Positions 4,277 to 5,265 of a stretch of 10,475 bases of DNA are shown in pieces. Location of the stretch: the IMG/VR virus record IMGVR_UViG_2657245139_000006. One strand, 5' to 3'. Under the pieces are notes generated by a model, which was not told the DNA's origin, searched no databases, and was given only the letters and a program-made list of their open reading frames with translations. This stretch comes from a virus. Taxonomy: Duplodnaviria > Heunggongvirae > Uroviricota > Caudoviricetes. How positions within the stretch are numbered: the first letter of the stretch is position 1; the number at the start of each line of letters is the position of its first letter. The translations under genes were made by a program, and so were the position numbers.

Positions 4277-4570
4277 TTAGCTGCTGTCTTTTTTATATAG
4301 CTCTTTGAGCGTATCAAAGACAATTTTCTTAACCATATCGGATTGTTGTTCTGCCATACGCTCTGCATCGTCAATGTAAACTGATGCAGAGTTTTGTTTA
4401 TCCAGTGATTCTTCAATCGCTGCAATTATCTCTGAGTTCAGCGACCTGTTATTCATCTTCGCACGCTGTTTAATTTTCGCGTGGAGTTCATGCGGAAGTC
4501 TCAAGTGAAACTGCGCCTCGTCGTATTTGCTGTACATCCTTGATGCCTCACCAGTTGGGTGGAATGGCAT
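4277..4570 (-). CDS. mnt: Mnt-like ribbon-helix-helix (Arc/MetJ family) transcriptional repressor
   Basis: Translation contains FHLRLPHELHAKIKQRAKMNNRSLNSEIIAAIEESL (N-terminal beta-strand plus two helices of the Arc/Mnt fold) and a C-terminal DAERMAEQQSDMVKKIVFDTLKELYKK segment. From memory this closely parallels P22 Mnt (FNFRMP...NGRSMNSELLQIVQDAL...DAERLADEQSELVKKMVFDTLKDLYKK). AGGT lies upstream of the ATG at 4570; an internal ATG at 4537 (MYSKYDEAQFHLRLP...) is an alternative start. Confidence 0.8.
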   Translation of the reverse strand: MPFHPTGEASRMYSKYDEAQFHLRLPHELHAKIKQRAKMNNRSLNSEIIAAIEESLDKQNSASVYIDDAERMAEQQSDMVKKIVFDTLKELYKKDSS

Positions 4571-4610
4571 CGTAACCTACTGGATAAATACTCAATAGTA
4601 CCATTTCGGT

Positions 4611-4633
4611 ATGCAATCACATCATGGTTGCAT
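4611..4633. promoter_or_regulatory. inverted repeat ATGCAA-N11-TTGCAT upstream of the mnt-like gene (candidate operator)
   Basis: ATGCAA at 4611-4616 and its reverse complement TTGCAT at 4628-4633, about 40-60 bp upstream of the mnt-like start on the - strand. Only 6-bp arms; function inferred. Confidence 0.2.
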
Positions 4634-4668
4634 CATATCATTCGTCTGGAGCAATGAAATGTCAGATA

Positions 4669-5178
4669 TCACCTACCATGATTCTCATGATAACCATAGG
4701 TCTTTTCAGCCTCACGCCTTACAGCAATTGCATCATCGAGACTCTTAAAGTATCCGAGATTAATGCGCTTCCCTGCGTCGCTAATATATGCCACCCACTT
4801 TTTATGGGTCTTATGCCATGAAACACCTGCGCACCCAGATGTATTGTTTGTGTATTTAGATTTGTTTTTTAGGTTTTCACCGAGACTAACTAGACGCAGG
4901 TTGTCTATTGAATTATTTAACCCATTACCATCTTTATGGTCAATTTGCATTCCTGAAGGGATTTCACCATAAAACATTTCCCATATTATCCTATGAGCGG
5001 CGTATATTTTATCTTGATACCTGATAATTATATAAGATGTTTTCCTGTTCTTGTCCTTGAATATATGTCCTGCAGGCTTTTCTTTAGAGATATTGAACAT
5101 TTTGGGTCTTGAGAGATATTGGTCACTCCAGTACAGGAGTCCATCGTCTTTTAATACGAATACTTCGTTCCAGTTCAT
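4669..5178 (-). CDS. HNH homing endonuclease with C-terminal AP2-type DNA-binding domain
   Basis: HNH_3-type motif QIDHKDGNGLNNSIDNLRLVSLGENLKNK followed by an AP2-like segment GVSWHKTHKKWVAYISDAGKRINLGYFKSLDDAIAVRREAEKTYG. Start placed at the ATG at 5178 (MNWNEV...) because AAGGTGG sits 5 nt upstream of it; the longer ORF starting at 5208 lacks an RBS. Gene is AT-rich (roughly 38% GC by eye) relative to the flanking structural genes. Confidence 0.8.
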   Translation of the reverse strand: MNWNEVFVLKDDGLLYWSDQYLSRPKMFNISKEKPAGHIFKDKNRKTSYIIIRYQDKIYAAHRIIWEMFYGEIPSGMQIDHKDGNGLNNSIDNLRLVSLGENLKNKSKYTNNTSGCAGVSWHKTHKKWVAYISDAGKRINLGYFKSLDDAIAVRREAEKTYGYHENHGR

Positions 5179-5225
5179 GTTAACCACCTTTAAATAAAGT
5201 TCACTCATTATACAAAAAACATGCT

Positions 5226-5241
5226 AGCAATGAATATTGCT
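5226..5241. promoter_or_regulatory. perfect palindrome AGCAAT-GAAT-ATTGCT in the divergent HNH/tailspike intergenic region
   Basis: AGCAAT (5226-5231) and ATTGCT (5236-5241) are exact reverse complements. The site lies about 25 bp upstream of the tailspike ATG (5266) and about 50 bp upstream of the HNH ATG (5178). Confidence 0.25.
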
Positions 5242-5265
5242 TGCTTAACATATAGAGAAATTAAA

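Follow-up and report, generated by a model that had tools for sequence, protein, structure and literature searches.

What is a nuclease gene doing at the very start of a tailspike gene? The question is raised by IMG/VR virus record IMGVR_UViG_2657245139_000006, a 10,475-nt stretch of DNA (hereafter 'the window', meaning the whole stretch that was analysed) in which genes for an Mnt-type ribbon-helix-helix (RHH) repressor and an HNH-AP2 endonuclease stand between a gene 16-like gene and the tailspike gene of a P22-like prophage. The tailspike sets the O-antigen serotype that a P22-like phage can infect, and genes for immunity and exclusion are found in the 'ant moron' next to it. An earlier note on this DNA described the region as an immI-like hotspot in which the endonuclease gene had taken the place of arc and ant. 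The domain calls and the hotspot itself, the variable slot known as the 'ant moron' that separates genes 16 and 9, are borne out by the analysis described below; the replacement of arc and ant is not, since the insertion lies within the tailspike open reading frame (ORF). We regard it as fairly probable that a free-standing homing-endonuclease cassette, named HEG-1 in what follows, carries the HNH-AP2 gene as its cargo and targets the start of the tailspike ORF in P22-like phages.

The insertion at the tailspike start

The window was aligned with a set of cassette-free relatives comprising an Escherichia coli W prophage, phage IME10, Sf101 and PapM-32-1. The features at the tailspike start are as follows:

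4674..5283: HEG-1 cassette, 610 bp, a base-exact insertion/deletion difference in the alignment with cassette-free relatives
4669..5178, minus strand: HNH_3 + AP2 endonuclease gene, 169 aa, assigned by profile and structure model, with its TGA stop at 4669-4671
4648..4673, plus strand: orphaned original tailspike start, identified by identity to the cassette-free relatives, with a GGAG ribosome-binding site (RBS) at 4648-4651, an ATG at 4659 and the codons MSDIT
5254..5283, plus strand: replacement tailspike start, identified by alignment, with an AGAG RBS, an ATG at 5266 and the six codons MTDSIN
5184..5212, minus strand: putative expression signals of the HNH gene, read from the sequence, namely the Shine-Dalgarno sequence AAAGGTGG (5184-5191) and a consensus -10 element TATAAT (5207-5212)
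5226..5241: inverted repeat AGCAAT-gaat-ATTGCT, inside the cassette and about 25 nt upstream of the new tailspike ATG

The cassette interrupts the original tailspike ORF directly behind its fifth codon. Without it, the junction reads ...GGAGCAATGAAATGTCAGATATCACC|GCAAATGTTGTGG and forms a functional tailspike start; the relatives have ...TCTGGAGCAATGAA-ATG-TCA-GAT-ATC-ACC-GCA-AAT-GTT-GTG..., that is, a working RBS and start encoding MSDITANVV. Past the ACC of the remnant, the window sequence instead enters the HNH gene, which lies on the opposite strand, from its 3' end, and the TGA stop codon of that gene is built from remnant bases. At the other end of the cassette, the replacement codons MTDSIN have an extra Ser codon compared with MSDIT or MTDIT (3 additional nucleotides and several substitutions) and rejoin the old frame at Ala-Asn-Val-Val. 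It is thus the beginning of the tailspike coding sequence, rather than the arc/ant slot, that houses the HNH gene, and the cassette supplies a substitute 5' end for the gene that it interrupts. The 87-bp divergent spacer between the HNH and tailspike ATG codons (5179-5265), the AAAGGTGG RBS and the AT-richness of the insert are all as previously described, with a G+C content of 35.9% for the cassette, 38.2% for the HNH coding sequence and 51% for gene 16.

The orphaned RBS and ATG open an ORF of 29 codons (4659-4748, plus strand; MSDITYHDSHDNHRSFQPHALQQLHHRDS), which extends into the HNH gene in antisense orientation. Late transcripts would allow its translation, and gene callers could be misled by it; together with the duplicated start it can misdirect the annotation of the tailspike start.

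Both palindromes that had been pointed out in the region, at 4611-4633 (discussed below with the repressor) and at 5226-5241, do exist. The latter overlies the -35 position of the presumed HNH promoter, and its core is kept across the HEG-1 family, with one double change to GTAAT..ATTAC in Enterobacter. RNAalifold predicted no structure for it, and its covariation is not significant (76% paired versus 73% in shuffles, with 2 double changes). Because the repeat is also present in loci without mnt, it is not an Mnt site.

The endonuclease and its putative expression signals

The HNH start at 5178 matches that of RefSeq homologues. Profile hidden Markov model searches, proposed in the earlier note as a check on its domain assignments, detect HNH_3 in the product at 2e-20 and 72.4 bits (Pfam cut-off 24.8) and also find Arc and Repressor_Mnt in the neighboring protein; AP2 in a single-sequence search scores 22.8 bits, under its cut-off of 33.3. 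PHROG 99 matches the HNH protein at 2e-59, and PF13392 and PF00847 occur in many homologues. A profile built from 47 homologues matches the AP2 proteins WRI1 (8e-6) and TEM1 (2e-3) in the PDB over residues 113-160, and the same profile matches the homing endonuclease I-HmuI at 3e-12 through the N-terminal two-thirds. The AlphaFold model is confident (mean predicted local distance difference test, pLDDT, 92.9), and its C-terminal unit consists of strands 119-122, 127-134 and 137-144 followed by a helix, 147-161. A Foldseek search of the PDB with the model returns 1u3e (I-HmuI) first, with a probability of 1.00 over 102 columns, and then AP2 domains, including AtERF1 (1gcc; TM score 0.64 on the target, root-mean-square deviation 1.2 A) and 7et5/7wq5 (probability 1.00). 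The family profile and the structure model together confirm the predicted C-terminal AP2 domain, and the HNH-AP2 assignment for 4669-5178 on the minus strand holds.

I-HmuI (PDB 1U3E), an HNH nicking homing endonuclease from Bacillus phage SPO1, is the best solved match to the N-terminal beta region and HNH core of the protein (phmmer 2e-5 in addition to the profile and Foldseek matches above), with the DH...N...N catalytic motif conserved. The catalytic residues D80-H81, N89, N93 and N105 are invariant across the 47-sequence alignment and kept in the window protein, which is predicted to nick or cut DNA. The two enzymes are about 24% identical, and they differ in setting and in their C-terminal parts: I-HmuI is encoded in a group I intron and has a C-terminal helical/helix-turn-helix DNA-binding region, whereas the window protein is free-standing and has a C-terminal AP2 domain. 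Among PADLOC models, the HNH protein matches only the generic 'HEase' homing-endonuclease models, and no defence-system model matches either this protein or the Mnt-like one.

The HNH gene is antisense to late transcription. The TATAAT position of its putative promoter is retained in relatives at 64-83% identity (described below). Consensus scans of 4150-5350 could not define Pmnt, a Pant remnant or an HNH -35 element, and a terminator scan of the same interval found none.

Sporadic occurrence in mosaic surroundings

The earlier note had suggested comparing the locus across genomes to see whether the HNH gene is present or absent at exactly this site. It is both: the HEG-1 cassette occurs in 15 of 5426 complete E. 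coli genomes, in one copy each and at 97.8-99.7% identity, compared with about 1016 genomes that have the tailspike 5' region adjoining it. Eight IMG/VR contigs also contain the cassette. Among 50,697 deposited phage records it is absent; the closest proteins there are less than 50% identical and encoded at other loci.

On the left, the surroundings of HEG-1 in 13 E. coli loci vary widely. In some the cassette is preceded by the window-type mnt alone or by mnt and a hypothetical gene, in others by another mnt allele together with a P63C gene or by one of three different mnt-arc-ant sets; it may also adjoin gene 16 at an Sf6-like locus that lacks immI, or lie in a degraded prophage. In E. coli strains 81, PSJ-07 and NRG857C, HEG-1 lies downstream of an intact mnt-arc-ant set, and in LD39-1 it lies at a locus without any immI; arc/ant loss and HNH gain are therefore independent, and the proposal that the HNH gene stands 'instead of arc/ant' falls. 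On the right, there are at least seven tailspike lengths, with unrelated receptor-binding parts. Pairwise identity by segment, given as medians over 17 distinct loci, drops steeply on both sides of the cassette:

HEG-1 cassette: 98.6%
First 100 nt of the tailspike gene: 95%
Remaining head-binding domain: 90%
Left flank beyond 30 nt: about 52% (unrelated sequence)
Right flank beyond 330 nt: about 52% (unrelated sequence)

The 15-nt remnant to the left of the cassette is polymorphic in step with the left context among HNH-positive loci. It has at least three versions, ATGTCAGATATCACC, ATGACAGACATCACC and ATGACAGACATTACC, each of which is the native tailspike start of its left context. Near-identical cassette haplotypes bear differing remnants and differing right flanks at distances of 12 nt or less from the boundaries. 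Such a pattern would be expected of a discrete unit that moved into several backgrounds. The differing remnants are less than strong proof of a break exactly at the junction: a heteroduplex formed in ordinary recombination and extending up to the homology boundary could give the same result. Some copies of HEG-1 are decayed, with a T-run frameshift in two loci (L025 and L047) and a truncation in E. whittamii (L034), where the left junction is the same.

The rebuilt start is also found by itself. MTDSINA without the cassette is present in 40 of 48 IMG/VR contigs and in phage HK620 (locus L005, 2473-2552), on an ordinary P22-type upstream region. These cassette-free alleles may be former HEG-1 hosts, or they may represent the ancestral background of HEG-1. 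An attempt to recognize HK620-type starts as footprints of HEG-1 loss (by recombination between flanking direct repeats) from the number of A residues before the ATG was uninformative, because cassette-free MTDSINA alleles show all of the variants AAATTAAATG, AAATTAAAATG and AAATCAAATG.

Distant relatives at the same site

Protein searches with the HNH sequence also find relatives at 83% (Enterobacter ludwigii), 79%, 75% (Salmonella enterica), 66% and 64% identity, from Enterobacter, Salmonella and metagenomes. On each contig that encodes one of them, the gene is divergently upstream of a tailspike gene with a Head_binding domain in a P22-like prophage, and the left neighbors vary. In four of the five a start remnant persists at this junction, diverged in the case of Enterobacter; the 64% relative (L040) has a terminator hairpin where the remnant would be expected. 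All members of the HEG-1 family rebuild the start as M[TS]DSI[TN], with MTDSIT or MSDSIT in the relatives, and the extra Ser is variously encoded by TCA, TCT, TCC or AGC. MTDSITA-type starts, as in the Salmonella and Enterobacter relatives, have no matches in IMG/VR. Synonymous sites are saturated among these same-site relatives, and the ratio of nonsynonymous to synonymous divergence (dN/dS) is 0.03-0.23, which indicates that the endonuclease has been kept functional at one site for a long time.

Two further lineages at the identical junction

When the sequence 3' of the candidate Mnt operator (see below) was tabulated across IMG/VR, some contigs were seen to read MSDIT and then continue into different DNA. 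Two more cassettes, HEG-2 and HEG-3, account for these. HEG-2 encodes a 166-aa HNH_3 + AP2 protein (HNH_3 2e-16, AP2 4e-6) that is 42% identical to that of HEG-1 over the core. The gene is again antisense to the tailspike gene, with its stop codon taken from the remnant, and the replacement start is MPEQLY|NVVV. Copies that are at least 99.3% identical are present in 15 complete E. coli genomes, and 21 IMG/VR contigs also have HEG-2. The same two types of remnant recur, left contexts and tailspike bodies vary, and one copy (EC06) is split. HEG-3 encodes a 162-aa protein, 35% identical to HEG-1 and 42% to HEG-2; it is found in 7 genomes, with the replacement start MSNIVP|NVII at the same junction. 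Example loci are L114 and L212-L215 for HEG-2, and L233 and L234 for HEG-3. The starts MPEQLY and MSNIVP always occur with their own endonuclease gene (21/21 and 9/9 IMG/VR contigs, respectively). The three lineages together account for about 37 of the ~1016 E. coli genomes with the tailspike 5' region. An apparent fourth junction type (L225) proved to be a chance match in an unrelated context.

The junctions share small details as well. All three cassette types open with 'TA' at the left junction (4673/4674 in the window, and likewise in L114 and L233), and all three endonuclease ORFs end in an Arg codon (A|GG) that is followed by the remnant-built stop. This may reflect a constraint of the insertion mechanism; a different interpretation is considered further on.

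A possible homing cycle

How could such a cassette spread? In the mechanism that we propose, the enzyme would recognize approximately codons 3-8 of the cassette-free tailspike allele, ATG-[AT]CA-GAY-ATY-ACC^GCN-AAT-GTT-GT, and nick or cut there, and repair would then proceed from a cassette-bearing genome. The left homology arm would be the short conserved RBS and start region, surviving as the remnant at 4648-4673, and the right homology arm would be the conserved coding sequence of the head-binding domain. A left arm of this kind would explain why the remnant is retained beside a hypervariable left flank. Short homology arms would be usable with the Erf-type recombination functions of P22-like phages, for which some of the loci compared have annotated genes.

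Because the tailspike is essential, the cassette must rebuild its 5' end, and so it carries an RBS, an ATG and six codons. Rebuilding recreates a target-like sequence, and altered starts would therefore be needed; MTDSIN with its extra Ser, MPEQLY and MSNIVP should each resist cutting. Decayed copies are expected in a homing cycle. Cleavage specificity, spread by repair and the immunity of the altered starts are what we infer from the comparisons, as is the Mnt target discussed in the next section.

The comparative signature fits homing in several respects: a precise insertion, a sporadic and mosaic occurrence, fidelity to one site through saturating divergence, three lineages that share one phosphodiester position but rewrite the target differently, and catalytic residues that are intact under purifying selection, with occasional pseudogenes. 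The suggestion of a free-standing homing endonuclease that acts on the tailspike locus is thus supported by the precise presence/absence polymorphism and the strict site fidelity.

The Mnt-like repressor as a separate module

If the endonuclease gene came by itself, what is the role of the repressor gene beside it? The features upstream of the orphaned start are as follows:

4277..4537, minus strand: Mnt-type RHH repressor, 86 aa, identified by Pfam Arc and Repressor_Mnt
4542..4571: inverted repeat GATGCC-N18-GGCATC in the mnt leader, overlapping the mnt Shine-Dalgarno sequence on the mnt strand
4599..4611: candidate Mnt operator TACCAtttCGGTA, identified by alignment with the P22-type Omnt position
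4611..4633: inverted repeat ATGCAA-N11-TTGCAT, the first of the two palindromes pointed out earlier, upstream of the original tailspike RBS and outside the cassette

The RHH assignment for 4277-4537 (minus strand) was correct: the protein matches Arc (PF03869; 3e-14, 53 bits) and Repressor_Mnt (PF11423; 3e-14, 52.7 bits), both above the Pfam cut-offs, and so has both the N-terminal Arc-like RHH domain and the C-terminal Mnt tetramerisation domain. The start is the ATG at 4537, preceded by a GAGG RBS and shared with RefSeq homologues (WP_000287053, 86 aa); an alternative in-frame ATG further upstream, at 4570, would give 97 aa. The DNA-reading beta-strand is QFHLRL, versus HFNFRM in P22 Mnt. 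PHROG 795 and the annotation of Sf101 gp14 (L006, 2509-2802) label this family 'partition protein ATPase', which looks like a propagated mis-annotation because the protein is an RHH repressor of 86-97 aa.

The candidate operator TACCAtttCGGTA follows a shared CTCAATAG block at the place where P22-type immI has Omnt, TAGGTCCACGGTGGACCTA. It has one palindrome mismatch in the window and is a perfect palindrome, TACCAtttTGGTA, in Salmonella relatives with the same Mnt type. Its right neighbor in 75 distinct IMG/VR sites is the tailspike gene, or an endonuclease cassette plus the tailspike gene, in all but one, and arc/ant is never seen beside it in these sites (the neighbor in the lone exception, L201, was not identified). 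The -35 and -10 hexamers of P22 Pant are not recognizable in the window when it is aligned with P22-type immI, and the window contains no arc, ant or sieA. We also considered whether an orphan Mnt might shield the prophage in trans by repressing the ant gene of superinfecting phages with the same operator; this is unsupported, as the operator was not seen beside arc/ant in the 75 sites. To judge from these alignments, Mnt probably binds 4599-4611, where it would regulate its own gene and gate transcription at the divergent region between mnt and the tailspike gene.

The mnt module of the window (the gene and its upstream region) is present in 276 of the 5426 E. coli genomes, about 9 of which carry HEG-1. 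HNH-free loci with mnt alone are the common state, as in E. coli W, IME10, Sf101, PapM-32-1 and several hundred genomes. The idea that Mnt regulates the HNH gene is hard to reconcile with these numbers and with the occurrence of HNH beside other mnt alleles or none. An Mnt gene without arc and ant is also less unusual than it had seemed, since Mnt-only 'ant morons' have been described for ST64T, ST104 and Para1 (Villafane et al. 2008, PMC2629481). The distribution suggests that the Mnt-like gene forms a self-contained module of its own, next to the tailspike gene and common in E. coli P22-like prophages, and that it is neither a leftover of ant control nor an HNH regulator. In one type of Salmonella prophage (L037/L038, 4155-6600), a window-type Mnt gene is found together with a separate, complete mnt-like/arc/ant set; two Mnt-family repressors are thus possible per phage, with the window type always proximal to the tailspike gene.

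The leader repeat at 4542-4571 is kept across differing mnt alleles and, in the alignment, between E. coli and Salmonella; on the plus strand it has a fold energy of -14.9 kcal/mol (z = -2.2) and could act on late read-through transcripts. The 4611-4633 repeat folds as RNA at -9.4 kcal/mol (z = -2.85), and the equivalent spot upstream of the tailspike RBS holds other hairpin-forming sequences in Sf6-type and P22-type contexts.

Weighing the explanations

The main competitor to homing is that the HNH gene landed once at the tailspike start as a passive moron and was then shuffled among P22-like prophages by ordinary homologous recombination through the conserved flanks, with the nuclease serving the lysogen or phage in some other way, such as exclusion or interference by cutting superinfecting relatives' DNA. 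We think this unlikely but worth serious attention. The site is a high-flux 'ant moron' between genes 16 and 9 that often holds prophage-expressed cargo such as sieA (PMC2629481), and the HNH gene, antisense to the late operon and with its own -10 and RBS, resembles such prophage-expressed morons. The common occurrence of MTDSINA without the cassette, the low prevalence, and the shared 'TA' and Arg-stop junction, which is compatible with a single ancient insertion, can be read in the same way. What is hard to obtain without site targeting is three lineages only 35-42% identical, with different starts, at the same phosphodiester position; the nearest relatives in both structure and sequence are homing endonucleases, and decayed copies are frequent. 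Exclusion and homing are moreover not mutually exclusive, as both could follow from the same cleavage activity. A functional pairing of the two genes, in which the RHH protein represses the nuclease or acts as its antitoxin in an addiction or exclusion module, was a speculative alternative in the earlier note and is in our estimation highly improbable. It would account for the genes being adjacent and co-directional in the window, RHH proteins are common antitoxins, and the Mnt-like protein has a weak HicB/FitA-like match. The genes nevertheless lack genetic linkage and the obligate co-occurrence in one operon of an addiction pair: most mnt modules are without HEG-1, and HEG-1 is also found beside ant, gene 16 and other mnt alleles. 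Between the two genes lies the orphaned tailspike start, their expression signals are separate, the candidate operator adjoins the tailspike start or cassette plus tailspike in all but one of its sites, and the PADLOC matches are to homing-endonuclease models only. Least probable of all, and close to negligible, is a single event in which HNH replaced arc/ant and left Mnt orphaned. In the window the HNH gene does sit between mnt and gene 9, the position of arc-ant in P22; but mnt-only loci without HNH are the common state, HNH coexists with intact mnt-arc-ant, and the left boundary of the insertion is tailspike codon 5 rather than the joint of an arc/ant deletion.

Several observations weigh against targeted homing as the explanation of HEG-1. 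Prevalence is low: HEG-1 reaches about 1.5%, and the three lineages combined about 3.6%. HEG-1 may simply have arisen in an MTDSINA allele, in which case this start would not be a change evolved for immunity, and the shared TA and Arg-stop could mean one ancient insertion instead of repeated targeting. The left homology arm is only ~30-45 nt. Given lambdoid mosaicism, ordinary homologous recombination could yield the shuffled flanks and the remnant types without any endonuclease, and cleavage, nicking and inheritance are all things that we infer from sequences. The HNH promoter is without a recognizable -35, and a promoter scan of 4150-5350 gave 2 sites versus 4.2 expected, the HNH -10 not being listed among them. 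Finally, the copy of HEG-1 in the window adjoins a frameshifted tailspike gene (see below), so this prophage may be defective.

Taking the homing explanation a step further, one can picture the first codons of the tailspike gene as a homing site contested by at least three diverged HNH-AP2 lineages with 'immune' starts, where the double-strand breaks are a main driver of the unusually high genetic flux at the border between the variable ant moron and the conserved head-binding domain, and the prophage nucleases double as exclusion weapons against cassette-free relatives. We offer this larger picture only tentatively and think it doubtful as a whole. If true, a family of site-specific nucleases would make its breaks precisely where the tailspike gene meets the ant moron, with swaps of immunity and exclusion cargo on one side of the junction and of serotype-specific receptor-binding bodies on the other. 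The arrangement also represents an unusual selfish-gene lifestyle within an essential ORF, with no intron or intein: five codons are severed, and a promoter-proximal RBS, an ATG and substitute codons are brought along. The nucleases might also be tools for, or obstacles to, tailspike engineering in P22-like phages. If the nuclease is inactive, it is an ordinary accessory gene in a known hotspot.

Relation to known systems

Free-standing homing endonuclease genes are familiar from T-even phages, where Seg and Mob genes such as mobE and segG are stand-alone nuclease genes with their own expression signals that have conserved genes as neighbors. Close relatives may have or lack a given one, and the enzymes are believed to cleave the empty allele close to the insertion point, with co-conversion of flanking markers. 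These genes are intergenic, belong to virulent phages, and are of the GIY-YIG type or the HNH type without AP2. The HEG cassettes, in contrast, are embedded in the 5' end of an ORF for an essential structural protein in temperate phages, with the first five codons discarded and a substitute start provided. An insertion within a coding region is known from Aeromonas phage Aeh1, where a free-standing mobE is inserted in nrdA and the function of the host gene is retained; nrdA is split there into two polypeptides that reassemble. The HEG cassettes differ in severing just five codons, which are replaced by codons borne on the cassette.

HNH-AP2 homing endonucleases (PHROG 99) are a bacterial and phage class that has been linked to the origin of plant AP2 factors, and they have the same two-domain architecture as the window protein. 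The nearest ones in deposited phages (T1-like Drexlerviridae, Salmonella phage Seszw and others) are less than 50% identical and at other loci, often in several copies per genome. The P22 immI region or 'ant moron' (PMC2629481) occupies the same slot between gene 16 and gene 9 and has an Mnt-type repressor as in the window, but the window is without arc, ant and sieA, and its Mnt has other DNA-reading residues and another candidate operator. An endonuclease at the tailspike start is not mentioned in PMC2629481, and in the literature covered (subscription papers were outside its scope) we found no description of one in P22-like phages. The kind of gene is known, a phage HNH-AP2 homing endonuclease gene; for the site at the tailspike start, the replacement start and the sharing of one junction by three lineages, we found no description in that literature.

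Genomic setting of the window

The DNA of the window forms the right end of an E. coli prophage of the P22-like type (Lederbergvirus). Homologues of the P22 ejection genes 7, 20 and 16 are on the plus strand and end at 4187, a gtrA/gtrB/gtrC-like O-antigen glucosylation cluster is on the minus strand at 7049-9603, and an integrase gene is found from 9953 onward. The genes on either side of the variable slot are:

2190..4187, plus strand: gene 16-like DNA-ejection protein, identified as an ORF, the last late gene ahead of the variable region; RefSeq homologues of its product are labeled 'P22-gp16 family' or 'DNA transfer protein'
5266..6982, plus strand: tailspike gene with a P22-type head-binding domain (Pfam Head_binding, 3e-63; PHROG 17420) and a rare receptor-binding body

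The tailspike body beside the gtr cluster has a single match, at 86%, in the 5426 E. coli genomes. Its reading frame is broken near 6387-6394, where the window has a run of eight G residues compared with seven in the 81%-identical homologue from PapM-32-1. The extra G could be a homopolymer sequencing error, or a real change that is inactivating or phase-variable; if it is real, the prophage of the window is unable to make tailspikes. The same extra G is present in IMG/VR contig UViG_2869936548_000010, which contains DNA identical to the window. Across 4100-5400, the nearest complete genome is that of E. coli 23CRST042, at 99.0%.

Two minor points concern other parts of the window. A run of N at about 766-930 breaks the gene 20 homologue (697-2190), and represents masked or unresolved sequence rather than biology. 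Downstream of gtrB and gtrA, the gene at 7049-8314 on the minus strand encodes a 421-aa multi-pass membrane protein with no Pfam match, which by its position we take to be the serotype-specific GtrC-type glucosyltransferase.

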